A DNA stretch of 10,926 bases, taken from positions 1-10,926 of the IMG/VR virus record IMGVR_UViG_2728369607_000012; one strand, 5' to 3'. Each line of letters begins with the position of its first letter. Position 1 is the first letter of the stretch. Both the position numbers and the translations under genes were made by a program. The stretch is from a virus (taxonomy: Duplodnaviria > Heunggongvirae > Uroviricota > Caudoviricetes). Of the stretch, positions 1 through 10,926 are shown piece by piece. Under the pieces are notes generated by a model. That model did no database searches, had not been told where the DNA came from, and worked only from the letters and a program-made list of their open reading frames with translations.

Positions 1-34
1 TTTCCGGCTATCCGTTATGAAGCTGGTGGATGTT

Positions 35-85
35 CCCCGATATGGGGATCCCCATAACGGGGCTACCGGATTTTTTTCCGGTTAA
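35..85 (+). terminator. Paired CCCC-N5-GGGG hairpins followed by ACCGGA-T7-TCCGGT; possible terminator of an upstream plus-strand gene
   Basis: Imperfect 28-bp palindrome at 35-62 (ccccgatatgggga / tccccataacgggg), then accgga-ttttttt-ccggt at 65-83. Confidence 0.25.
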
Positions 86-342
86 CCTTTAATCAGGCTG
101 GTGGGTCTTACATACCCTTGATCACCGTAATGATGATCCAGATGTGCACCTTTTCCACCAATGGCGGAAAAGCTCCAACCGTAACGATGATCGCTATGGT
201 TGCCTCGATGGTCTGCGTGGTCATTATGACCATTCAGCCAGTGACCTTAATCAGAATTTTTCGCTAAAAAATGACGTTGGCCACGTCATCCGGAAAGCAC
301 AAAATCACGTCGATTTTTAATGAACGGTTAAACCGTCTTTTT

Positions 343-377
343 GTCACGGTGTGTCACTGGTTGTCACTCTCCGTCAC
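343..377. promoter_or_regulatory. Four GTCAC pentamers at exact 10-bp phasing (candidate protein-binding array)
   Basis: GTCAC at 343-347, 353-357, 363-367 and 373-377; nearby palindromes at 270-286 and 324-337. Confidence 0.35.
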
Positions 378-406
378 GATTGAGGTGGTGCTCATTCTGC
401 CCGACC

Positions 407-629
407 GCGCATTTTTGCGCTATCGGGAATATAAAACAGTTACCGCGCCGACTTCCTCAAATTGAGGTTTCCGAAAATATCAACTAGTTAACGATAAACT
501 GGCGAGTAATTAAACTACGAAAATTTCGTAGTTTGTGAATATATTCCGGCCTGCTGGTTAACAGTCCTCAGATGTGAGGGATGTAGCCAGCGCAATTTTG
601 CGTTATCGGGAATATCAAACAGTTACCGC
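407..629. repeat. Two 40-bp direct repeats (407-446 and 590-629, 37/40 identical) flanking small palindromes
   Basis: gcgcatttttgcgctatcgggaatataaaacagttaccgc versus gcgcaattttgcgttatcgggaatatcaaacagttaccgc. Between them lie hairpin-like sites CCTCA-N3-TGAGG (455-467) and CCTCA-N4-TGAGG (566-579) and a 23-bp perfect palindrome (512-534). Confidence 0.75.
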
Positions 630-674
630 CGTCAGCTACCCAGCTCAGAATTGAGCCGCCTTTTAATCAACAAG

Positions 675-965
675 TTACCGCCGTAACCGCCGTAACCGCT
701 CCGGCTTCTTCCAGTGGTACGTGATTTTCTCCTTCTCCCGATACAGTTCAACGCGGCGATTGTAGGCCAGCATTTCCAGAACGCGGATCCGTATGTCGCG
801 CATATCCGCATCATTAAGCTGGATACCATCACGGCGCATCACCTCAGCAACAACACGCGCATAATTTTCGGCTGTCACGCTGTCCGGCTGCGTGGTCTGT
901 TCGTCAGCCTGCTGGCTGATTCCAGAGACGCGGCGGATTAATCGCAGTATTTCGGCTTCTGTCAT
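675..965 (-). CDS. Hypothetical protein (96 aa) with Arg-rich C-terminus (RLRRLRR)
   Basis: ATG at 965 preceded by GAGGT with a 7-nt spacer; starts 13 nt after the TerL stop; C-terminus is encoded by three tandem 9-bp GTAACCGCC-like repeats at 674-700. No family recognised. Confidence 0.5.
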   Translation of the reverse strand: MTEAEILRLIRRVSGISQQADEQTTQPDSVTAENYARVVAEVMRRDGIQLNDADMRDIRIRVLEMLAYNRRVELYREKEKITYHWKKPERLRRLRR

Positions 966-978
966 GCTGCTGACCTCA

Positions 979-2640
979 TTACACCCCGCTAAATTCTTCC
1001 AGTTTCTGGCGGTGGCTGTCGCTTATATCAAAAGCAAAATCCTCATGCTCTGCCTGGAATGTACCAAACGCCATCAGCGCCGCTACGCTCGGGTCTATCT
1101 TGTTCGGTGATTTTTTCTTGTTCGGCTTGATATTGGCGTTCGCGTCACTCTGCATCACGACGTTACTCATCGACCAGGACAACACCGGATCGCCACGATG
1201 CACAATCACCCTGCGGTTAACAAAAACTTCGAACGATTTCGCCGCCGGACTGAATCTGAGGTAGGTTTGCGGGAACGGCTCCACCTCAAAACCAGCCCCC
1301 TGTAATTGCGTCCTGAGATGCGTGGCGTTCCACGTATCAAAGCCCACCAGCCTGATATTAAATTTCTCCGCATCCTGCATGATGTCATCTCTGATCCGGT
1401 CGTAATCAATGCAGTCACCTGGCGTTGTGCGTATCCAGCCCGCTTTAGCCCACTGGCGATAGACAGCGCGGTTTTTATTGGCGGGGTTCTGTAGCTGGAA
1501 CTCCGGCAGATAATGACGGGAAACCAGCATGATATTTTTACCGACCGGAAAGGCATAGCACACGCTGGAAATATCGCTGGTTGATGATAAGTCCAGCCCC
1601 GCGTAACACTCCTGCCCGTGTAAATCTTCCTCCGTGAACGTTCCGGCACACTCAGCCCATGCGCCGTTACCCATCCACGGGGTAGCCCCCTGGCACCAGA
1701 TATTAAATCGCTTTGTCATCATCTCCACCCATTGCGACGGAATACCCCGCGCTTTCTGGATGGTTGAGGCCAGTTTTTCACGATCCACGGAAACATCGAT
1801 GTTAGGGTTAGCCTTTATCCACATCGCCGGATCATCAACCTCGTTTTCGTCGTCCAGCTCGTAAATCAGCACAAAAATTGAATCGTTGACCTCTTCGCCG
1901 TCCAGGATCTGGCAGCAATAATCATAGTGCTGCTTACAGGCTGAAACGACGTTACTGCCCGATGTGGTAATGGCAAATAACAGCCCTTCGGGACGTGCGC
2001 CCATCCCCAGCTCAAGCGCGGAATAAACGCCGTTATCGGGGTGTAGGTGGTATTCGTCCACGATGGAAAGGCTTGGGTTTGTGCCCTCGATGGTTGCCGC
2101 TTTTGCTGCCAGCGGCTTTAACAGGCTGTTGCTTTTCGGGTGCATCACCTTGTGGGCCTGAATATTCACCCGCCTGCGTAACGGTCGGGATAAAAGGCAC
2201 ATCTGACGCGCATCATCAAAAACGATCCGCGCCTGGTCACGGCTCACCGCTGCGGTGTAAATATCCTGCTGCCCGTTCTCCATAATCAGAAACCAGTTAG
2301 CCAGAATCGCGGCGGTCGTGGATTTCGCATTTTTGCGCGGCACTTCGATAAAGGCGCTCGTGTATTTGCGCCGTCCGGTGGCCTTAACCTTAAAGCCGAG
2401 GATGCACGCAAAGGCGAACTGCTGCCACGGCTCCAGCTCAATGGATCTGCCACGCATCGGCCCTTTTACGTGCGGGCACACCCTGGAAAAGGCAATAAAC
2501 CGCTCCACAACCTCACGATCGAACGTGTAAAGGGGGCTTTCAAGGTCCGAAAAGTACCGTTTAACGGCCTGTTTCAGCCGTTTACAGGCCGGAATTTTGC
2601 CCGTTTTTACGTCTTCTGCGTACTTATTCCAGGCGGTCAA
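979..2640 (-). CDS. terL: Terminase large subunit (553 aa)
   Basis: Size, N-terminal pattern (AWNKYAEDVKTGKIPACKRLKQAVKRYFSDLE) and position directly after terS are typical of HK97/lambda-type TerL. Start codon is TTG at 2638-2640, preceded by AGAGGA with a 5-nt spacer; overlaps terS by 17 nt. Confidence 0.9.
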   Translation of the reverse strand: MTAWNKYAEDVKTGKIPACKRLKQAVKRYFSDLESPLYTFDREVVERFIAFSRVCPHVKGPMRGRSIELEPWQQFAFACILGFKVKATGRRKYTSAFIEVPRKNAKSTTAAILANWFLIMENGQQDIYTAAVSRDQARIVFDDARQMCLLSRPLRRRVNIQAHKVMHPKSNSLLKPLAAKAATIEGTNPSLSIVDEYHLHPDNGVYSALELGMGARPEGLLFAITTSGSNVVSACKQHYDYCCQILDGEEVNDSIFVLIYELDDENEVDDPAMWIKANPNIDVSVDREKLASTIQKARGIPSQWVEMMTKRFNIWCQGATPWMGNGAWAECAGTFTEEDLHGQECYAGLDLSSTSDISSVCYAFPVGKNIMLVSRHYLPEFQLQNPANKNRAVYRQWAKAGWIRTTPGDCIDYDRIRDDIMQDAEKFNIRLVGFDTWNATHLRTQLQGAGFEVEPFPQTYLRFSPAAKSFEVFVNRRVIVHRGDPVLSWSMSNVVMQSDANANIKPNKKKSPNKIDPSVAALMAFGTFQAEHEDFAFDISDSHRQKLEEFSGV

Positions 2641-2980
2641 GCTCGTCCTCTTCTTCTGTTTCCGGTGGATTTTTACGGCGGCTTATCGGGTCAAAACCGA
2701 GCAAGGAGGCCATTTTTATCATCACTCTTTCAGCGTCGGATTTTGCGCTTAATGCGGGGTTTCTGCTCTCGCCGCCCTGACTGTTAACAATGCTGAACCC
2801 GCGCGCCGCAAGGTCTGCAACGGCTTTCCGGTAAATGGAGTAGTTGACACAATACAGTTCCAGATTGCTCCAGTCGGCGGGGGTCAGGTCTCCCCGTTCC
2901 GCAAGCTGCCTAGATTTTTCCCGCCACTGCTTCACGGCGATATCATCCAGGTAGGCGGGGGCTTTCGGTGGTCTTGACAT
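2624..2980 (-). CDS. terS: Terminase small subunit, P27-like (118 aa)
   Basis: N-terminus MSRPPKAPAYLDDIAVKQWREK...LELYCVNYSIYRKA resembles P27-family small terminases; acidic C-terminus; sits immediately upstream of and overlaps terL. Confidence 0.8.
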   Translation of the reverse strand: MSRPPKAPAYLDDIAVKQWREKSRQLAERGDLTPADWSNLELYCVNYSIYRKAVADLAARGFSIVNSQGGESRNPALSAKSDAERVMIKMASLLGFDPISRRKNPPETEEEDELDRLE

Positions 2981-3269
2981 GCTTATTTTTTCGCCAGATT
3001 ATTTTTCAAAAAATTCCCGTGCATAAAAATTTGAGGAGGCGTTCGGTGCCCGGCGGGGTCGGGTTTGTCCTGAAAACGCCCCCCACCCCGTCATACAGCC
3101 TCATCAGCGATTGCGGAAACATTCCATAACCTCGCGGTCACGGTCGGTTAATCGCTTCGCTGTGATGCGTTCTGCGCGTCCTGACGCTTTATCTTTATGC
3201 CCTGTTTCCTGTGTCTTCCATGCGTCACGCTGCCTTATAAGTCCACGGATAAGGCGGTTTTGTTCCCGC
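2981..3269 (-). promoter_or_regulatory. Candidate cos / packaging-initiation region (HNH-terS intergenic spacer)
   Basis: 289-bp non-coding gap in an otherwise tightly coupled operon; GC-rich core (ggtgcccggcggggtcgggtttgtcctgaaaacgccccccaccccg, about 3038-3090) flanked by AT-rich sequence. Position between HNH and terS matches where HK97-type cos sites lie. Confidence 0.3.
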
Positions 3270-3710
3270 TCATTCATCAGCGTCATACATCCAGTTATTG
3301 CGGTTAGCGGCCCGTTCTTCCTCTTCACGAAATCCACCTGCGGCACGCTTGCTTTTTGTTGCCGGATCAAGCCATTTCGTTTTCTGGTTATGACACGCCT
3401 GGCACAATGGTTGATGGTTCCATTCGGGCCAGAAGAGAACATCATCACCGCCATTAATCGGGATAATGTGATCCACCACCACGGCGGGCGTATATATCCC
3501 CTTCTCAAGGCATCGCACGCATAACGGGTTTTTACTCAGATACATGGCGCGGTATTTGTCCCACTGTCTGGAATATCCACGCGCGCGGCGGTGTCCTCGT
3601 CTGGCATCCTCTGCACGCCATGCTGCCCGCCTGTGCTCCTCACACTTGCCGGATTTAACGCGCCTGTTACAGCCTGGTTCTGTGCATCGTCTTAATGGTT
3701 GCCACGGCAT
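3270..3710 (-). CDS. HNH endonuclease (146 aa), terminase-associated
   Basis: Cys/His zinc-finger-like N-terminus (CTEPGCNRRVKSGKCEEH) and HNH-type motif (VVDHIIPINGGDD...NHQPLCQACHNQKT); located directly upstream of terS; start overlaps connector stop (TGATG). Confidence 0.85.
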   Translation of the reverse strand: MPWQPLRRCTEPGCNRRVKSGKCEEHRRAAWRAEDARRGHRRARGYSRQWDKYRAMYLSKNPLCVRCLEKGIYTPAVVVDHIIPINGGDDVLFWPEWNHQPLCQACHNQKTKWLDPATKSKRAAGGFREEEERAANRNNWMYDADE

Positions 3711-4006
3711 CAGTACACCCCCACATCACGGTAAGCCGTCCAGAGTGCGCCAATCGTCATGGGTACGCGTGTTTTTGCGTTATCCGCGACAATCTGGCGA
3801 TTCTCATACAGGTGAGCGATAAACATCATGCAGCCAATCTTTATGGCTGGCGTGAACTCCAGCCCGTCATCAAAGCGCCTGCCTATGTGTATCTGGCACG
3901 CCTCAAGCGATGCGGCAATGTATCCGCTGATTAACTGGTCTTCCTCGTCTCCATCGATACGGCAATGGAGTTTCACTTCTTCCAGGGTGATAAGTTCTTC
4001 TGTCAT
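3710..4006 (-). CDS. Head-tail connector protein, gp6-like (98 aa)
   Basis: Size and sequence character (MTEELITLEEVKLHCRIDGDEEDQLISGYIAA...) typical of gp6-like connector proteins; ATGA start/stop overlap with the upstream gene. Confidence 0.7.
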   Translation of the reverse strand: MTEELITLEEVKLHCRIDGDEEDQLISGYIAASLEACQIHIGRRFDDGLEFTPAIKIGCMMFIAHLYENRQIVADNAKTRVPMTIGALWTAYRDVGVY

Positions 4007-4341
4007 TTTTCCGCGCCCTCACGACAAAGAATTTCAAGGCGTGTCCTGGCGACATCCGGCAACGGCTGCCCGATGATATTCAGTACACGCCCCGCCAGCG
4101 GCCCCGTACTGACCTTTATCCGGCTGGTGGCGTTGATGTCCTTCCGGTACCGTATCCAGATCCTTACGGTACCAATCGCCAGCTCTGCGCCCGATGAAAT
4201 GGCCTCCTTGCTGCTGATCATGTTCACGCTTGCCCAGAGTGTGTGACCGTCCTCCCACGTTTCGAGTATTTCGCCCGTCATGGCTCTGGTCTGTTTCAGG
4301 GTCTGAATCGTTATCCTGTCACGCAGTCGCCCTATGTTCAT
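4003..4341 (-). CDS. Head-tail adaptor / head closure protein (112 aa)
   Basis: Sequence resembles phage head-tail joining family proteins. Start chosen at ATG 4339-4341 (ATGA overlap with portal stop, GGGAGA upstream) rather than the longer form from 4383. Confidence 0.7.
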   Translation of the reverse strand: MNIGRLRDRITIQTLKQTRAMTGEILETWEDGHTLWASVNMISSKEAISSGAELAIGTVRIWIRYRKDINATSRIKVSTGPLAGRVLNIIGQPLPDVARTRLEILCREGAEK

Positions 4342-5549
4342 TCCGGTTTTTCTCCCTCGCTGATTTTTACTTCCTGTTTCCATGCCTGACTGAACTCATC
4401 ACCACCATCACGCGGTGACAGTCCTTCACGTTCGCGGGCTTCGTTCGGGCACATAACGCCGGATTTGATGCCGCACTCATAGGTGGCAAAGCGTTCGCCA
4501 GGTGTGGCCCGTAACAGGTCCGCGCTGTCAAACTCCACCTGATACCGGATACCAGGTACAGGCGAGGCCACCAGCAGGGCGTTTTTTATCTGCTGCTCAA
4601 AGTTCGCCAGCCACGGGCGCATCGTCATGGTGAGAAATGCGCGGCTTGCCTCGCTGAAATTGCTGTAGGTGCTGTTGCTGTATTCCTGCAAAAAAATCGG
4701 CGAGACGTTGAACATTCGGGCGATGTCTTCAATGGTAAAGCGACGGGAGGCCAGCCATTCAGCATCCTGATTACTCATGCCCAGCTGCTGATAGCTCATC
4801 CCCCCTTCAAGGATGGGCGTTTTTCCGGCGTTTCTGGCCCCTTTGTAGCGTTCCAGTGCGGCTAATGCCTGTTTGCCCTTCACGCCGTCCAGCCATTCGC
4901 CTGACGTGATAACCCCTGCCGCCATCATGCCATCACGCATCACGCTCGCGCCGTGGCGTTGTTGGGCCAGCCCAAGCCCCAGCGATTCGCGGCAGATGGT
5001 TACAGGTGAGCGCCCCATAAAGCCGTCATCCGTGGAGTAACGAAGGTGAAGTACTTCCCACGGTAAATAGTTGTGGGTGTTTCCGGTGTAGGCGTCAGTG
5101 ATGCAATAGCGCCAGTTGTGTTCGCCTGTCTGCTCCACGTTCACCGACTGCGGCGGGTAAGGATGTAAAGCCGCCGGAAAACCATCACGCCCCCACTGAA
5201 TAACCGCATAAGCATTACCGTTTAACAGGCAGTGGCGGATCATCATTCGCTTAAACTGGTAGGGGGTTTGCCATGCGTTCGGGCGCTCGTTGAGGATGTG
5301 ATCGACCGGATGAGAATCAAGCCACTCGCGGGCCTCCTTCCCCTTCTCATTGCGTACCAGGTACAGGTAGCATGGCATAGTAGCCACCGCCTCAGAGATG
5401 ACCGTAACGGCGTTCATGACGGCAGGCAGTGATTCCGCTGTCCCCGATGATACGTACTCACCCGCCCCCGTGTTCGATGTGCCAGCCAGCGCCATAAATT
5501 CATCAAGCGTCATGCTGCGCTGCTCTTTTTTTCTTCTGAAAGGCCACAT
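4338..5549 (-). CDS. Portal protein, HK97-type (403 aa)
   Basis: Size and sequence typical of HK97-family portal proteins; flanked by prohead protease and head-tail adaptor genes. Confidence 0.88.
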   Translation of the reverse strand: MWPFRRKKEQRSMTLDEFMALAGTSNTGAGEYVSSGTAESLPAVMNAVTVISEAVATMPCYLYLVRNEKGKEAREWLDSHPVDHILNERPNAWQTPYQFKRMMIRHCLLNGNAYAVIQWGRDGFPAALHPYPPQSVNVEQTGEHNWRYCITDAYTGNTHNYLPWEVLHLRYSTDDGFMGRSPVTICRESLGLGLAQQRHGASVMRDGMMAAGVITSGEWLDGVKGKQALAALERYKGARNAGKTPILEGGMSYQQLGMSNQDAEWLASRRFTIEDIARMFNVSPIFLQEYSNSTYSNFSEASRAFLTMTMRPWLANFEQQIKNALLVASPVPGIRYQVEFDSADLLRATPGERFATYECGIKSGVMCPNEAREREGLSPRDGGDEFSQAWKQEVKISEGEKPE

Positions 5550-5550
5550 A

Positions 5551-6123
5551 TCACACCCCCGCTAAATCCACCCACCAGCGGCGATTATCCGCACGCGGCA
5601 TTTTTTCGGGGTGCTGCTCATACAGGGAACGGCGGGCCAGCTCCACGCCGGAATCGGGGTAAGCCGGTACCGATGTAACGGTAATTTCGTACAGTTCCGC
5701 CACCAGCACGGTGCGCACGCATGGATCTGTTGTGGTATCCCATACATCCTTACGGGAGCGAAAGCCAAAGCTCATGCCGGATATATCACCACGTTTAACC
5801 AGTTCGATAACGTCGCGCCCTGTACTGGTATCCGGTGGGGTCAGTTCAAAGCGTAACCCTGTTTCATCCTCTTCCAGTTTCAGCGTGCCGGAACGGGTGC
5901 GCCCCAGTAACATACTGTGGTCATGCTCATACAGGCCGCGAACGTCATTACCCGCCGCAAGCCATTCAGTAAACGCCCCCCGCTGGAATTTTTCGTAAAA
6001 CTCACCCCATAACAGTTCTGAAAGCTTATCCCAGCGAACAACGTAGCCTGTAAGCGTGTTGCTGCCGCTGGTGGTGATTTCCGATGACCGGATTTCCATA
6101 CTCTTCATAATTTTTTCACCCAT
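5551..6123 (-). CDS. Prohead maturation protease, HK97-type (190 aa; exact start uncertain)
   Basis: Sequence typical of HK97-family prohead proteases; sits between major capsid and portal genes. Three ATGs within the first nine codons make the start ambiguous. Confidence 0.82.
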   Translation of the reverse strand: MGEKIMKSMEIRSSEITTSGSNTLTGYVVRWDKLSELLWGEFYEKFQRGAFTEWLAAGNDVRGLYEHDHSMLLGRTRSGTLKLEEDETGLRFELTPPDTSTGRDVIELVKRGDISGMSFGFRSRKDVWDTTTDPCVRTVLVAELYEITVTSVPAYPDSGVELARRSLYEQHPEKMPRADNRRWWVDLAGV

Positions 6124-6133
6124 AAAACACTAA

Positions 6134-6151
6134 AGGGGCTTTTAAGCCCCT
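6134..6151 (-). terminator. Stem-loop plus U-rich tract between capsid and protease genes (partial terminator / attenuator)
   Basis: On the minus strand: AGGGGCTT-AAAA-GCCCCT-type hairpin followed by TTAGTGTTTT immediately before the protease ATG. Confidence 0.35.
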
Positions 6152-6162
6152 TCTGTATGCTG

Positions 6163-7320
6163 TTAATCGTCGTCCTGTGGCAGTTCCAGAATCTTGATCG
6201 CGTTCGAATCCACCACGCCACCGCCTAAATATTTCTGCGTGAAAATTTTGATGAAACCCGGCTCTGTGAGGTTGTCCGGTCTGGTGCGAACACCTGTTTC
6301 GTGATCAACAATGTAGTAACCGCGTTTGAAGTCACCCAGGGCAATAACGTTATCAGGCATAAACTCCAGATATTCGACCGGAAGGCCCAGCAACGTATCA
6401 GGATCACCCGCCTGTAAACGGTCACGCCAGATGTAATCACCGTTCGCGTTCTTCACCTTCTGGAGTTTTGCCGCCGTCGTGGAGTTAACCACCCAGACCG
6501 CGTTTTTGCGGTATTTTTTACGTAATGCAAATTTCAGGTCGATCAGCGGGTCCGCAGATGTCCACGCCAGAGATTCGGAAGGTTTAATTACCTGCAACGT
6601 ACCAAAATCACGCTCTTTGTCGTTCTTCTCTGCACGGGGTACGGATAAAAAACCTTTTGCTTTTTTGTCACCGTCGCCCACAACCAGATCGCTTTCTTCG
6701 GTTTCCGTGAAGGTGTCGCCAATCTCACCCGTCAGCCATGAAAGGATGTCCACATCGGAAAAATCCACGATTTCCTGTGTGGTGCGCGGGTACGCATAGA
6801 CCGGATACAGCTTAATGCTCACCTCGTTAATCTGCGGGGTGCTGGTCTGTTCGCGTGCCTTACCCTCTTCACCGTGGTTAACGGTCGCACCGCCAGCGGA
6901 AACAAGCTGCTTAAACTCGTTGCTGCTGATTTTTTTCACGGTACAGATGCGGCGCATGGTGGACTCATCCGCCAGCATTCGCATGATTTCGGTGTTCAGT
7001 TCGGGGATAACGGTATAACCACCATCAGCGGGAACGCCTGTACTTAATGCGCGGGTTTCACCTGTCAGAATGTAGCTGCGTAGTTCTGCGGGGTCAGTGG
7101 TCTGGCTGCTTTTACCTGGCTTGCTGCGCTCTTCGTCTGCAATGGCTTCAAGGCGGGAAATGTCTTTATCGAGGGATTCAGCTTTAGCGCGTAATTCGTC
7201 AAATTTTGCGCCCTCAGCATCGTTAAGACTGCGGTTTTCTTTTTCCGCGTTCTCCAGCATGTCGCGCATCTGATTTTTAATGGCGGTTTTCTGCTGGCGT
7301 AATTCGATTATTCTCGGCAT
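6163..7320 (-). CDS. Major capsid protein, HK97-type (385 aa)
   Basis: Size typical of HK97-fold capsid proteins; N-terminal region rich in charged, coiled-coil-like sequence (delta/scaffold-like domain); followed by protease and portal genes. Confidence 0.88.
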   Translation of the reverse strand: MPRIIELRQQKTAIKNQMRDMLENAEKENRSLNDAEGAKFDELRAKAESLDKDISRLEAIADEERSKPGKSSQTTDPAELRSYILTGETRALSTGVPADGGYTVIPELNTEIMRMLADESTMRRICTVKKISSNEFKQLVSAGGATVNHGEEGKAREQTSTPQINEVSIKLYPVYAYPRTTQEIVDFSDVDILSWLTGEIGDTFTETEESDLVVGDGDKKAKGFLSVPRAEKNDKERDFGTLQVIKPSESLAWTSADPLIDLKFALRKKYRKNAVWVVNSTTAAKLQKVKNANGDYIWRDRLQAGDPDTLLGLPVEYLEFMPDNVIALGDFKRGYYIVDHETGVRTRPDNLTEPGFIKIFTQKYLGGGVVDSNAIKILELPQDDD

Positions 7321-7357
7321 AAAAAAAGTCCTGGGGTTAAGTAAGGAACTCCAGGAC
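7321..7357 (-). promoter_or_regulatory. Terminator-like hairpin plus U7 abutting the capsid start codon
   Basis: Minus strand reads GTCCTGG-AGTTCCTTACTTAACC-CCAGGAC then TTTTTTT then ATG. The only SD-like AGGA lies inside the 3' arm of the stem. Confidence 0.4.
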
Positions 7358-7410
7358 GCGGCAAAAACTCAACCGTTTTTCATAAGGGAATCAGCAATCG
7401 CACCGATCGT

Positions 7411-7458
7411 TTTCCCGCCTGGTAATGAATATTGGCGAGCACATTAACAGGCGGGAAA
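7411..7458 (-). repeat. Inverted repeat in capsid-operon leader (11-bp perfect arms, extendable to 17 bp with one mismatch)
   Basis: tttcccgcctg (7411-7421) and caggcgggaaa (7448-7458) are exact reverse complements. Confidence 0.6.
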
Positions 7459-7504
7459 GTGGCCCCAGCGTCCTGGCACCACGGGCGAGAATAATCATGA
7501 TTCA

Positions 7505-7560
7505 GTTCGGGTAAAATATGCCGATCCGCTCAGTGAACAACGTGGAACAACCACGAACAA
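7505..7560 (-). promoter_or_regulatory. Candidate promoter / activator site for the capsid operon: three helically phased TTGTTC hexamers
   Basis: On the minus strand TTGTTC recurs three times at exactly 10-bp spacing (plus-strand GAACAA at 7535-7540, 7545-7550, 7555-7560). The last copy sits 16 bp upstream of a TATTTT -10-like hexamer (plus 7513-7518). Confidence 0.3.
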
Positions 7561-7565
7561 ATAAT

Positions 7566-7601
7566 TTACAAAAAATAACAAAAAGCCGGATTGCTCCGGC
7601 T
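7566..7601 (-). terminator. Rho-independent terminator
   Basis: Minus strand: AGCCGGA-GCAA-TCCGGCT stem-loop (GNRA-type loop) followed by TTTTTGTTATTTTTT; lies downstream of the 53-aa ORF stop at 7624. Confidence 0.65.
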
Positions 7602-7623
7602 GCGTGGTGTGGTTCTGATATTC

Positions 7624-7785
7624 CTACTCTGCTAATTTGCTCAGCCCCATGTCTGCGTAAGTGCGATTTACTGCATTTCTCAGGTCTGCGTAGTTCTCCG
7701 TTGGCGGCTCCGGTGTGCCCTTGCTGCTCTGTTTTACCTGCGGGTCGTCCACCAGCCGCCCGTAAGCTGCAATTTGTGCTGTCAT
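7624..7785 (-). CDS. Small hypothetical protein (53 aa)
   Basis: ATG at 7783-7785 preceded by GAGGTGG with a 4-nt spacer; starts 9 nt after the upstream gene stop; followed by the intrinsic terminator. Below the 60-aa cutoff of the supplied ORF track; found by manual translation. Confidence 0.45.
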   Translation of the reverse strand: MTAQIAAYGRLVDDPQVKQSSKGTPEPPTENYADLRNAVNRTYADMGLSKLAE

Positions 7786-7794
7786 ATTGCCACC

Positions 7795-8100
7795 TCAGTG
7801 AAGCGATCCGGCATTGTTCTTTTTCATCTCTTCCATCATTTTTTCAGTGAGCATTACGCACTGAAACCCCATGTTTTTGATGTCTACGGGTTTCATGCCT
7901 TTGTCAGTGGATATCACAGGCAGAATATCCTGATACACATCGCGGTCAGGGTAACTAAGCACACAAAGCGCCCATGATGCCACGGGTGAGGATCCTTCGA
8001 CTGTTTCAACCCACCAGCCTGGTGTAGCTGCGCTTATTTGCAGAATCGTGATCCGTCCGTTGTGCTTGTAAAATTTTTCACCAAATTTTGGTTCGCTCAT
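7795..8100 (-). CDS. Hypothetical protein (101 aa)
   Basis: Start ATG overlaps the stop of the upstream ORF (ATGA); co-oriented in a tightly packed operon. No family recognised. Confidence 0.55.
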   Translation of the reverse strand: MSEPKFGEKFYKHNGRITILQISAATPGWWVETVEGSSPVASWALCVLSYPDRDVYQDILPVISTDKGMKPVDIKNMGFQCVMLTEKMMEEMKKNNAGSLH

Positions 8101-8348
8101 GATTCCACCTCTCCGGTTTTAACGTTGATTGTTGTTACCTGTTCCGCTTCGGCAATCTCCCGTTCTGTCAGCGTGGCAAAGTTTGCCGCCGCTGTGGTCA
8201 TGAATGCGCTTATCAGTTCGGGATGCTCCTTCGCGTATCCTTCCCCCGCGTGGCGGTCTATCGTTCTGATTGCCACCTTTAAAGCGTGCTCTGTCATGTC
8301 TAACGCTTTATATTTTGGCTGTGTTCTGTCTCTGCGTTTTTGTGTCAT
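8097..8348 (-). CDS. Hypothetical protein (83 aa from ATG 8348; start uncertain)
   Basis: The longest form (from 8396) has its N-terminus encoded by the iteron repeats, so an internal start is more plausible. ATG 8348 is abutted by GGGGAG; ATG 8297 is an alternative. Confidence 0.45.
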   Translation of the reverse strand: MTQKRRDRTQPKYKALDMTEHALKVAIRTIDRHAGEGYAKEHPELISAFMTTAAANFATLTEREIAEAEQVTTINVKTGEVES

Positions 8349-8351
8349 CTC

Positions 8352-8525
8352 CCCACCTATACCCACTTTTACTCCCCACTTTTCACAATTCCCCATTTAT
8401 CATGCTGTTTCATAAGGATTTTTTTGCTCCCCACTTTTTGGGATGTATACAGGTCAAAAAGTGGGGGATCGTGTTTAAATTTTGTTAAATTCCCCATACC
8501 CACCACTTTTGCCACCCACTTTTTA
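8352..8525. repeat. Iteron array: candidate replication origin
   Basis: CCCACTTTT-type motif in direct orientation at about 8362-8370, 8374-8383, 8429-8439, 8499-8510 and 8515-8524, and inverted at 8456-8466. The 8429-8439 and 8456-8466 copies form an 11-bp perfect inverted repeat around a 16-bp spacer containing GTATAC. An AT-rich stretch lies at 8471-8490. The array begins at the replication-protein stop codon. Confidence 0.55.
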
Positions 8526-9932
8526 CAGTGGCCCTACATCATCGCCGTCAACATAGATAACGCCGTCTTTTTCCAGCTTGCCCAGCCAGCGCCGGAAGTG
8601 CTTTATTTCGTACCCCAGTTTTTTCATGTCATCACGTAACAGCGGGATCGTGCACTTGTCGCCGTTCTGTGTGCGTGAACGGATACACCCCCATAGCGCG
8701 GTATGGTTTTCCGTCTTGTTGCCTGCCTCTTCGATGCGCTCCAGTTCAACGGGAGGGCGCGGCTTATCCACCACCACCAGCGACGTGATTAACTCCCCGT
8801 CAGCGTCGGTAAAAAGCTCCACCACCCGCAAATCATAGGCAGCCTCTTTGAGTTCCTCCGCGTCCTTCATTTTGGTGCATGAGATAACCAGCGCTTCGCT
8901 TCCTGCGTCCTCCCTGCGTATCCGGTATTCAGCATCCAGTGATGCACGAAATGCACTGGAACCGCGCGCGCCTTTCGTCTCATCCTTGCCGGAATGGTGA
9001 ACCACCAGCACCGTGGCCCCTGTGCGTCGTTTCAGTTCGTCACAACCACGGATAAACGCCCCCATATCACGGGAATCATTTTCATCATTCCCACCAAAGC
9101 AACGCGCCAGCGTATCCAGAATAATCATGCGTACAGGTTTACCCGTTTCCCGCTCCACCTGACGGGCAGCGATAACCATTTCATCAACATCAAGCGGGAC
9201 CGCCGGAAAGATGGGACGGTTTACCAGATACAGATTTTTCACCTGCTCACCGTGCACAACCTCCCAGGCTTTTACACGACGCGGAACGCCGATACCGCCT
9301 TCACCAACCACATAGAGAACAGCGCCATGCGCCACCCTGCGGCCTCCCCACTGGCGGCCCGTGGAAACGTGACACGCCCACGATCCGGCAAGGAATGATT
9401 TATAGGAACCGCTCGCCCCGTATATGCTGCAAAGCGACGATGCCGGAATAATCCCCTTTACCACGTAATCAAGCTGTGTGTCGTATCCGGTAGATCCAAC
9501 GCTCATCGGTAGCGTGGTTTTTCGCTGGGGGATTTTTTTCATGACCAGGCTTTCCCCGCGTTCCCATGCCTCCCTAAGCCGTGGAAGCTGGTCGCTCCAT
9601 TCCTCCAGCAATTCGAAATTTTCAGAAAGTAGCCGCGCCTCCTGGACTCCGGCGATCGCCAGTTTCGTGGCGATGGTTAACAGCTGCGGCTCTTCAATAT
9701 TTCCGGCGCGTATCACCGTCGCCCTGTATCGCCCATCATCAACAATCTGGAGGTTATCCAGTTCGCTTAACTGATAACGCCCCAGATAAACGGGAGGGAC
9801 TGGATCTCCTGCTTTTTTTGCCTGTGCAATGATGTAATGCTCTGCGAATGAATGAGCATCAATACCCGCAAAAATAATCGCATCGGTGTATTTATCTTTC
9901 GGTAATCGTTTTACGTTCGGTGCCAGTTTCAT
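8523..9932 (-). CDS. Replication protein with RecA/DnaB-like ATPase core (469 aa); satellite or phage replication initiator-helicase
   Basis: Walker A-like GASGSYKS, Walker B-like RMIILD, and VVHHSGKDETKGARGSSA motif typical of RepA/DnaB-like replicative ATPases; N- and C-terminal extra domains; start forms an ATGA overlap with the upstream ORF. Confidence 0.8.
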   Translation of the reverse strand: MKLAPNVKRLPKDKYTDAIIFAGIDAHSFAEHYIIAQAKKAGDPVPPVYLGRYQLSELDNLQIVDDGRYRATVIRAGNIEEPQLLTIATKLAIAGVQEARLLSENFELLEEWSDQLPRLREAWERGESLVMKKIPQRKTTLPMSVGSTGYDTQLDYVVKGIIPASSLCSIYGASGSYKSFLAGSWACHVSTGRQWGGRRVAHGAVLYVVGEGGIGVPRRVKAWEVVHGEQVKNLYLVNRPIFPAVPLDVDEMVIAARQVERETGKPVRMIILDTLARCFGGNDENDSRDMGAFIRGCDELKRRTGATVLVVHHSGKDETKGARGSSAFRASLDAEYRIRREDAGSEALVISCTKMKDAEELKEAAYDLRVVELFTDADGELITSLVVVDKPRPPVELERIEEAGNKTENHTALWGCIRSRTQNGDKCTIPLLRDDMKKLGYEIKHFRRWLGKLEKDGVIYVDGDDVGPL

Positions 9933-10228
9933 TTTTTACCCCTGAATCCGTTAATCATGGTTTTCAGCTTCTGGATGTTTGCCCGTGCCCTGGCGTTGCT
10001 GGTGGGCACGTTATGCGGCGCGGTCTGTACCAGAGAAAAATCACGCCGGAACTGATAAACAGGCATCACGCAATCATATTCGTAACCTTCACGGCGGTAA
10101 GTTACGCACCGTCCCGCCACGCCCTTAATCATTACCGTACCGCCGTACTGGTCGCGGTAAATATCACCGCGCGTAAATTTAGGGTGAGTGTTGCCACTGG
10201 CAGTTAAGCCAGAATATTTAAGTTTCAT
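9929..10228 (-). CDS. Hypothetical protein (99 aa)
   Basis: ATG at 10228 preceded by GGAGAA with an 8-nt spacer; stop overlaps the replication-protein start. No family recognised. Confidence 0.55.
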   Translation of the reverse strand: MKLKYSGLTASGNTHPKFTRGDIYRDQYGGTVMIKGVAGRCVTYRREGYEYDCVMPVYQFRRDFSLVQTAPHNVPTSNARARANIQKLKTMINGFRGKK

Positions 10229-10233
10229 TATTT

Positions 10234-10467
10234 TTATTCTCCGGTGTGGGGCGCTTTATACTGGTCGTGTAATGTCTCTATTTCCTGCAACTCATTTATT
10301 ACAGGCTCAAGAAGCGTTATTAATGCCGTGGCAATTCTTGATTTTTGTTTGTCGCGTTCATTGTCGCCAAGTGTTTCAAGCCATATGCGCAATATTTCCA
10401 TCATATTTTCACTGTGAGAAAGTGCAAGAAATACGCGATCTGTTGTTTCGTGGTAAATATCACGCAT
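10234..10467 (-). CDS. Hypothetical protein (77 aa)
   Basis: ATG at 10467 preceded by GAGGATG with a 6-nt spacer; overlaps the upstream ORF by 8 nt. Confidence 0.5.
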   Translation of the reverse strand: MRDIYHETTDRVFLALSHSENMMEILRIWLETLGDNERDKQKSRIATALITLLEPVINELQEIETLHDQYKAPHTGE

Positions 10468-10693
10468 GGCTTACATCCTCAGGAAATTTTCTTCTGTAAC
10501 GAGCCTCTGCCACATATTCCGCATAATCGGCGGCGATATTCAGTACATCAAGCCCCGTTGATTTATATTCTCTCGTGGAAAGTAAGAAAAAAGCCGCTCT
10601 AATAAGTTCTGGCATTGACGAAAGCGCATCAGCCGCATCATCAGATACGCCGGAAAATTCCTGTTTCAGGGAATTAAAACGATCATCAAGCAT
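10460..10693 (-). CDS. Hypothetical acidic protein (77 aa)
   Basis: ATG at 10693 sits 2 nt downstream of a G9 tract on the coding strand; part of the same small-gene operon. Confidence 0.45.
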   Translation of the reverse strand: MLDDRFNSLKQEFSGVSDDAADALSSMPELIRAAFFLLSTREYKSTGLDVLNIAADYAEYVAEARYRRKFPEDVSHA

Positions 10694-10926
10694 AACCCCC
10701 CCCCATTTTCACAATCAGCAATCAGGATAGCTTTGGCCTCATTCAGCGCCATATCAGCACTAAGTTGCATAACCGCCAGCGAATGAGGAACGAAAGCCCC
10801 TGCATATTCTGTTTCACTGGTGGCGTGCTTATGCGCCCTGTCAGCAATAACAGAAATATCAATAAGCGCGTGCATCAGCGTAGTGAGCGCGGCGGCTGCT
10901 GCGTCCGGTGTGGTTTTATTGTGCAT
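10666..10926 (-). CDS. Hypothetical protein (86 aa or longer; may continue beyond the window edge)
   Basis: Open frame reaches the window end, where an ATG sits at 10924-10926; the 3' end reads through the G9 tract (encodes GGG). Confidence 0.4.
   Translation of the reverse strand: MHNKTTPDAAAAALTTLMHALIDISVIADRAHKHATSETEYAGAFVPHSLAVMQLSADMALNEAKAILIADCENGGGLCLMIVLIP
10696..10704. repeat. Homopolymeric C9 (G9 on coding strand) tract
   Basis: Nine consecutive C at 10696-10704, read directly from the sequence. Confidence 0.9.

Follow-up and report, generated by a model that had tools for sequence, protein, structure and literature searches.

The HNH–terS junction of a capsid-forming island

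The window analysed here is a stretch of 10,926 nucleotides of viral DNA (positions 1 to 10,926 of IMG/VR record IMGVR_UViG_2728369607_000012), and we are concerned with the short region that lies between its HNH endonuclease gene and terS, the gene for the small terminase subunit, as the likely location of a cohesive-end site (cos). All long open reading frames (ORFs) of the window are on the minus strand and, in transcription order, Pfam assigns them as an AAA_25/RepA-type helicase, major capsid protein, prohead protease, portal, head-closure protein, head-tail connector, HNH, terS, and terL. This architecture identifies the window as a cf-PICI (capsid-forming phage-inducible chromosomal island) like EcCIEDL933, with capsid and packaging genes of its own; the complete element, known from strain FORC_041, also has an integrase but no tail or lysis genes. 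The genes around the junction are as follows.

3270..3710, minus strand: HNH endonuclease gene, 146 aa, accessory nuclease of the terminase (Pfam PF01844, E 1.8e-8; phrog_144, E 8e-45)
3104..3286, minus strand: small conserved gene, 60 aa (PGAP CDS WP_000174068.1 in FORC_041 and EDL933; phrog_3173, full length, E 7.5e-37)
2981..3103, minus strand: true intergenic gap, 123 bp, very probably the cos region; the small gene ends at 3104
2624..2980, minus strand: terS, small terminase of the P27 family (Terminase_4), 118 aa (Pfam PF05119, E 1.3e-23)
979..2640, minus strand: terL, large terminase, 553 aa (Pfam TerL_ATPase and TerL_nuclease)

The original prediction placed a candidate cos site in a 289-bp non-coding gap between HNH and terS. 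These two genes are indeed separated by 289 bp, but the sequence is not all non-coding, as 3104–3286 encodes a 60-aa protein, so that the true intergenic gap is the 123 bp from 2981 to 3103. The small gene starts with the ATG at 3286, overlaps the end of HNH by 17 nt, has its stop codon ending at 3104, and occupies 166 bp of the supposed gap. Its junction with HNH resembles the others of the operon, which overlap by 1–17 nt, as had been noted, or nearly abut, in both the ORF and the PGAP coordinates. The GC-rich core that had been described between AT-rich brackets is also present in part; the core (3036–3103) has a GC content of 0.68 and the terS-side flank (2981–3035) one of 0.29, but the opposite flank is the small gene, with an average GC content of 0.53.

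Relatives for comparison were gathered by TerS protein similarity alone, with one genome per species, to avoid circularity, and the 200 nt upstream of terS were aligned for 31 loci from about 25 genera (Enterobacterales plus Aeromonas). An ORF with the C-terminal signature of the small gene (ERDRExxECFRNR) is present in 18 of the 31 sampled loci, and over its last 20 codons the identities at codon positions 1, 2, and 3 are 0.73, 0.77, and 0.50, a coding-type substitution pattern; the Xenorhabdus, Aeromonas, and Pasteurella versions lack the ORF, as do some others. He et al. count nine genes in the cf-PICI packaging module and name functions for eight of them, and for this reason the 60-aa gene may be the 'hypothetical gene 1792' of EcCIEDL933, and may be a ninth packaging gene. 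For annotation, the correction is that the HNH–terS 'gap' contains a conserved small gene.

Conserved blocks and their likeness to mapped cos sites

Read on the sense strand from HNH towards terS, the gap consists of a G-block (GGGGTGGGGG), a spacer of fixed length, a GC-rich 10-mer, and then CTCAAATTTTT...ATTTTTTGAAAAATAA, and the following elements can be distinguished.

3065..3089, minus strand: block A, GGGGTGGGGG-GCG-TTTTCAGGACAA, at the HNH-side end (identity across the 31 loci 0.93 for the G-block and 0.72 for TTTTCAGGACAA)
3050..3064, minus strand: variable spacer, 15 nt, of conserved length (pairwise identity 0.44, the neutral level, with almost no indels)
3036..3045, minus strand: predicted 10-nt cohesive end (cosN), sense 5'-CGAACGCCTC-3', plus strand GAGGCGTTCG (pairwise identity 0.81)
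2999..3035, minus strand: block B, CTCAAATTTTTATGCACGGGAATTTTTTGAAAAATAA, on the presumed first-packaged (terS) side (pairwise identity 0.77–0.91)

Three variable bases separate GGGGTGGGGG from TTTTCAGGACAA in block A, and the GCAC directly before the 10-mer has a pairwise identity of 0.84. Within block B the values are 0.91 for CTCAAATTTTT, 0.77 for AYGCACGGxx, and 0.84 for the A/T tract ATTTTTTTGAAAATAA. Counted from the start of the G-block, the first base past the 10-mer is 54 nt away in 24 of the 31 loci, within an overall range of 52 to 55. The G-block, 10-mer, CTCAAATTTTT, and A/T tract (0.81–0.93) are on par with the first two codon positions of terS itself (identities of 0.83, 0.86, and 0.52 at positions 1, 2, and 3), and their excess over the third positions of terS and over the spacer and Shine-Dalgarno region (0.44–0.49) points to strong purifying selection; judged by these comparisons, the gap holds a cis-acting element. 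The blocks are kept where the small ORF is absent (Xenorhabdus, Aeromonas, and some others), and the Pasteurella cf-PICI has the same layout. Each conserved motif is present once in the window, with a chance expectation of about 0.00–0.01.

The closest counterparts are the cos sites of phages SfI, SfII, SfIV, SfV, and ST64B, for which the cohesive end has been mapped experimentally in SfI and to whose small terminases the window TerS is related; HNH and terS flank cos both in these SfV-type phages and in HK97, and TerL and HNH of the window are homologous to those of both. In BLASTP comparisons with SfV, TerL has 30% identity (E 4e-81), TerS 36% (E 5e-21), and HNH 37% (E 6e-17). The cos junctions were compared by local alignment, with significance assessed against dinucleotide shuffles. 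The ST64B junction aligns with the window gap with a score of 40, reached by none of 5000 shuffles (z 8.1), and the score of SfV against the window was reached in 2 of 2000; ST64B also aligns with the Klebsiella cf-PICI (1 of 5000 shuffles) and with the Pasteurella element (5 of 5000).

Run-off sequencing of SfI virion DNA revealed a 10-nt gap, 5'-TGCCCGCCCC-3', relative to the prophage (PMC3636060), and as the reads show a gap and not an overlap, we infer that the SfI termini carry 3' overhangs. The SfI record ends with ...GGGGAGGGGCGGGTCAAATCTCTGTGACCTGACGTCTTCCGGAC followed by the 10-mer TGCCCGCCCC, and starts with GTCGTTTTTTTATACCCGCGAAAAATGAAATTTAACC... leading to the terS ATG; the ST64B junction has the same 10-mer between ...GGAC and CTCGAATTTTTATACCCGCG, and in the window CGAACGCCTC lies between GGGGTGGGGGGCGTTTTCAGGACAAACCCGACCCCGCCGGGCAC and CTCAAATTTTTATGCACGGGAATTTTTTGAAAAATAA. 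The SfI cohesive end aligns opposite window positions 3045–3036, and the first G of the G-block and the start of the 10-mer are 44 nt apart in both SfI and the window. The counterpart of block A in SfI and ST64B is GGGGAGGGGCGGGTCAAATC, and ST64B has CTCGAATTTTTATACCCGCGAAAAATGAAATTTAA at the position of block B. The phage and island sites thus share their location between HNH and terS, a significant DNA similarity, and an order of G-rich block, about 44 nt, GC-rich 10-nt cohesive end, and a T/A-tract block about 50–60 nt before the terS ATG. They differ in the 10-mer (CGAACGCCTC in the window and TGCCCGCCCC in the phages), in the 60-aa gene that is inserted between HNH and cos in the window, in the length of TerS (118 aa in the window and 164 aa in the phages), and in that the window element is a tail-less satellite and not a phage.

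From the alignment with the SfI 10-mer we predict that the cohesive end is window 3045–3036 (minus strand 5'-CGAACGCCTC-3'), with nicks between 3036 and 3035 on the minus strand and between 3045 and 3046 on the plus strand, which would give 3' overhangs. In the window this nick would lie 55 nt before the terS ATG, compared with 49 nt in HK97 and 50 nt in SfI.

HK97 offers a second, more distant comparison. Its HNH protein gp74, which stimulates cos cleavage, is 39% identical to that of the window (E 2e-19) and its TerL, gp2, is 27% identical (E 9e-46), whereas the window TerS has no detectable sequence similarity to HK97 gp1. The HK97 cos has a 10-nt 3' overhang and a TerS site at +15 to +29, CTAACCCGATTTTTT (PMC11331095), and the layout is a G-run, about 46 nt, CGCCGCCAAA, and then ...ACGC...CCCGATTTTTTT, with GGGCAGGGGGGGGGATCAAATC as the counterpart of block A. 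The HNH–cos–terS context, upstream G-run, GC-rich end, and a G/C triplet with a T-tract at about +15 to +29 are therefore common to both; the +15 to +29 interval reads CACGGGAATTTTTTG in the window (3021–3007) and CCCGCGAAAAATGAA in SfI. The HK97 and ST64B cos regions align significantly (a score reached by 44 of 5000 shuffles), and as the alignment of HK97 with the window itself is not significant, we treat HK97 as an analogue by layout and through its link to ST64B, and not by shown DNA homology. HK97 is related to the helper phages HK106 and HK446, whose terminase does not package the island.

The phage lambda cos, organized as cosQ-cosN-cosB, is cleaved to 12-nt 5' overhangs with no need for an HNH protein, and has integration host factor (IHF) and R sites. 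It is considered here by analogy only, and sequence similarity to it was not looked for; the shared logic is tripartite, with a termination-side element, a nick site, and a side bound by the small terminase next to the terminase genes, and the overhangs, HNH independence, and IHF and R sites set lambda apart. As regards the bending-protein sites anticipated in the original prediction, the analysis covered the A/T tracts of the gap. By eye, CTCAAATTTTTA of the window gap contains an IHF-like core (TCAANNNNTTR), which is not kept in SfI or ST64B.

A damaged copy of the site is present in the island of Shigella flexneri SFBU1023 (CP182556.1; L127), where about 100 bp, corresponding approximately to window 2952–3052, have been lost between two CCCCGCC repeats. 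The loss joins the cos-region spacer to terS codon 8 and takes with it the predicted nick site, block B, and the start of terS. This island has evidently lost its packaging ability.

DNA ends at the site and competing explanations

Four public records of cf-PICIs end at or around the HNH–terS gap and bear indirectly on whether packaged DNA would have fixed termini there. The metagenomic contig IMGVR_UViG_3300022664_000095 (15,518 bp) has terS and terL at its start and, at its far end, the capsid, protease, portal, head closure, connector, HNH, and small ORF genes. It opens with CTCAAATTTTTACGCACGG (pattern match at 1–40), which is at CTCAAATTTTT, and closes with ...GGGGTGGGGGAGGTTTTCAGGACAAAACCCAAGCCGCAAGGCAC, which is at GGCAC; integrated relatives read ...AAGGCAC-CACCCGCCCC-CTCAAATTTTT, with exactly 10 nt between these end points. 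The contig thus lacks exactly the predicted 10-mer, as would be expected if 3' overhangs were lost in end repair.

The evidence for ends consists of this one contig with exact ends and three supporting cases. The first of these is an isolate contig (L062, 12,178 bp), whose gap sequence is that of the window as far as it is present, and whose end corresponds to position 3045, 1 nt off the predicted nick. The second is vB_KppS-Ant (LR881103, 16,548 bp), sequenced from Nextera XT libraries of a phage preparation grown on Klebsiella pneumoniae DSM 30104 (PMC8006926). This record has cf-PICI gene content, is >99% identical to part of the DSM 30104 genome, and is evidently the KpCIDSM30104 island that He et al. 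studied. It is linear, starting 22 nt before terS and ending 37 nt past the small ORF, and its 60-nt flanks match the integrated copy in ATCC 13883 (= DSM 30104) at 100%, with the 69 bp between them missing (of these, 31 nt, the predicted 10-mer among them, belong to the HNH side and 38 nt to the terS side). Tagmentation libraries made from linear DNA are expected to lose a few tens of bases at each physical end. The third is PQ569648, like vB_KppS-Ant an assembly of virion or lysate DNA, whose cf-PICI part begins with the start codon of terS and runs to the final codons of the small ORF.

Some features of these records deserve separate mention. The paper on vB_KppS-Ant described it as a filamentous single-stranded DNA prophage (PMC8006926), and an ORF at 2036–4333 of LR881103.1 is annotated as a tape-measure protein. 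In PQ569648.1 (Klebsiella phage P12620-1, 106.5 kb, labelled a complete genome; L125/L126) the last ~15.9 kb are a cf-PICI that meets unrelated sequence abruptly at the terS ATG, as if two molecules of one lysate had been concatenated. A megablast search of phage records with the region gave only weak HNH matches, yet led to vB_KppS-Ant. Five apparent ends inside the gap (L021, L048, L095, L107, and L120) proved from the contig ranges to be storage-chunk boundaries and were discarded, and OR845787, with the host label EDL933, proved not to be EDL933 sequence.

Taken together, we consider it very probable that the 123-bp gap at 2981–3103 is the cf-PICI cos site, homologous to the cos of SfV, SfI, and ST64B and built like that of HK97. 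The placement of cos between HNH and terS in the original prediction is thus upheld, with the site in the 123-bp gap and not in all of the 289 bp and further narrowed to ~90 bp; four independent lines, namely block conservation, homology to the SfI type, contig ends, and virion assemblies, agree on the location between HNH and terS. The site is an expected feature of a known system, a new case of a known site type in a known satellite family, and is not surprising.

Several points weigh against this conclusion or parts of it. It is built on gene identities, block conservation, homology to a mapped cos, and coinciding contig and assembly ends, and these ends are those of relatives and not of the window itself. 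The contig with exact ends is a relative at ~82% TerS/TerL identity and was the only one of its kind found; no further contigs ending at the site were recovered from a TerS-seeded scan of IMG/VR, which returned almost only integrated copies, from an IMG/VR search with an E. coli-type left-end pattern, or from a metagenome scan. The window 10-mer CGAACGCCTC departs at 3 of its 10 positions from the variants sampled most often, CGCCCGCCCC and CACCCGCCCC, and the pairwise DNA alignment of HK97 with the window is no better than with shuffles. The 3' polarity of the overhang is argued from the missing 10-mer and from HK97, the pairing of blocks with proteins likewise leans on analogy, and the A/T-rich block could have a regulatory role alongside its cos function.

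An alternative is that the gap is only a regulatory spacer serving terS-terL, for instance through a promoter inside it, a terminator, or signals for translation, and that its conservation reflects control of expression. The sequence directly upstream of terS is AT-rich, most relatives have a Shine-Dalgarno-like GGAA, and expression signals can be conserved. However, the Shine-Dalgarno region is among the least conserved parts of the alignment (0.49), a scan of the gap found no sense-strand sigma-70-like promoter and no intrinsic terminator (the only promoter-like match is antisense), the gap has no Rfam match, and there is no conserved hairpin in it and no significant folding (z -0.97 versus shuffles). 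As this explanation also leaves the homology to a mapped cos and the contig ends unaccounted for, we regard it as improbable.

It is also conceivable that the gap is a cos site at which the cut is some nucleotides away from 3045–3036, for example in the variable spacer, with nicks shifted relative to SfI. The SfV GenBank record is linearized 17 nt upstream of the SfI end, and the end of contig L062 corresponds to 3045 rather than 3046; but the 15.5-kb contig stops at each end right at an edge of the SfI-equivalent 10-mer, and the spacing of 44 nt from G-block to 10-mer is the same in SfI and the window, making such a shift very unlikely.

Packaging from a site elsewhere, such as the direct repeats at 407–446 and 590–629, which are real and lie downstream of the last gene, or by a headful (pac) mechanism without fixed ends, is scarcely credible, as the vB_KppS-Ant record and the 15.5-kb contig are uninterrupted after terL and end at the HNH–terS gap, the genome-length contig has defined ends at the site in place of permuted ones, cohesive ends have been reported for a cf-PICI (bioRxiv 10.1101/2025.02.11.637232), TerL, TerS, and HNH have homologues in cos phages, and the 234–674 region is mostly unaligned with EcCIEDL933 (only 38–235 at 83% and 430–528 at 92%) in spite of packaging modules that are 97.5% identical. 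The alternative termini that had been suggested in the 234–674 repeats accordingly find no support, as virion-form records run straight through this region after terL. The repeats themselves (407–446 and 590–629, plus strand) are 40 nt long, 93% identical, and 183 nt apart, with a third, partial copy of 19 nt at 666–684, and sit in the non-coding DNA that separates the last island gene from phoQ; they are possibly integrase arm-type sites or the remnant of an accessory region.

A packaging model and the island as a whole

With the gap taken as the cos site, packaging might proceed as follows. Helper-induced replication would come first, after which the P27-type TerS of the island would bind the A/T-tract block upstream of terS (~3035–2999). 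TerL, aided by HNH, would then make two nicks 10 nt apart around 3045–3036, giving 10-nt 3' cohesive ends (sense 5'-CGAACGCCTC-3'), and the DNA would enter the island-encoded small capsid from the terS side, if the packaging direction is as we suppose. Packaging would end at the next cos, with the G-block (3089–3065) as the last conserved element to enter. Block B would in this model be a cosB-like TerS-binding region, with 3007–3021 at the position of the HK97 TerS site (+15 to +29); in HK97, TerS binding is on the terS side of the nick (PMC11331095 and PMC9410871).

Block A may act like lambda cosQ, or as a recognition site for TerL or HNH. The G-block takes the forms GGGGTGGGGG in the window, GGGGAGGGGCGGG in SfI and ST64B, and GGGCAGGGGGGGGG in HK97, and lies ~45–55 nt from the nick on the presumed last-packaged side. 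As it is common to systems with unrelated TerS proteins (HK97 gp1 and the P27 type) but homologous TerL and HNH, it is a candidate for a signal on the TerL/HNH side, and we tentatively suggest, as a possibility that is not the likeliest outcome, that the HNH/TerL half of these packaging machines uses it to recognize DNA or to terminate packaging.

The island in strain FORC_041 is ~15 kb in the PGAP map, bounded by a tyrosine integrase beside roxA and by phoQ, and tail and lysis genes are absent; its gene set, int...RepA-capsid-protease-portal-head closure-connector-HNH-small ORF-terS-terL, lies between phoQ and roxA, and the prototype EcCIEDL933 occupies the same chromosomal site in EDL933. 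The region around the HNH–terS gap is found in 533 of 5426 complete E. coli genomes, as this element or close relatives, and is chromosomal in every case. The packaging module of the window is 97.5% identical to that of EcCIEDL933 over 6.76 kb, and the stretch from the HNH end to the terS ATG, including the gap and small ORF, is 100% identical; we therefore take the genetics of EcCIEDL933 to apply to the window element. Mutation of each packaging-module gene of EcCIEDL933, including hnh, terS, and terL, abolished transfer, with the exception of hypothetical gene 1792, whose mutant was severely reduced in transfer, and the helper terminase does not stand in for that of the island (bioRxiv 10.1101/2022.09.08.507074). 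The packaged DNA of the Klebsiella relative KpCIDSM30104 is reported to have cohesive ends (bioRxiv 10.1101/2025.02.11.637232), and no published map of any cf-PICI cos site was found in the literature searched.

Some differences from EcCIEDL933 and a further feature of the window can be noted. terS codon 2 (window 2978–2980), the sole difference from EcCIEDL933 in the 340 nt compared, gives ATG TCA (Met-Ser) in the window and ATG GCA (Met-Ala) in EcCIEDL933 and nearly all relatives. The alignment with EcCIEDL933 ceases upstream of the capsid gene (window 7443–10926 versus EDL933; L247/L248), and the RepA-type helicase at window 8523–9932 has a DUF927 primase-like gene in its place in EDL933, indicating that islands with different replication modules share this packaging module and cos. 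Just past the end of phoQ, at window 35–62 (plus strand), there is a 15-nt palindrome, CCCCGATATGGGGAT / ATCCCCATAACGGGG, probably the terminator of phoQ or else a piece of the attachment region.

The cf-PICIs are widespread satellites that make capsids of their own, package no DNA but theirs, and take their tails from phages. Like P4, the cos-carrying Staphylococcus aureus pathogenicity islands (cos-SaPIs), and the Rpp-type E. coli PICIs, they are satellites whose packaging is directed by a cos site, but those elements copy a helper-type cos or redirect recognition to it and use the helper TerL, whereas the window island encodes its own TerS, TerL, HNH, and cos. If the G-block is indeed an element of the HNH/TerL half, the spacer of fixed length and free sequence would mean that the cut is measured from the flanking sites and not read at the nick, and the differences in the 10-mer and its flanks would keep the packaging of satellite and helper mutually exclusive. 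The prediction at the nucleotide level offers the field a defined cis element of ~90 bp, which may be of use for packaging cos-plasmids in cf-PICI capsids and for asking how satellite and helper terminases avoid each other's DNA and what the HNH partner recognizes.

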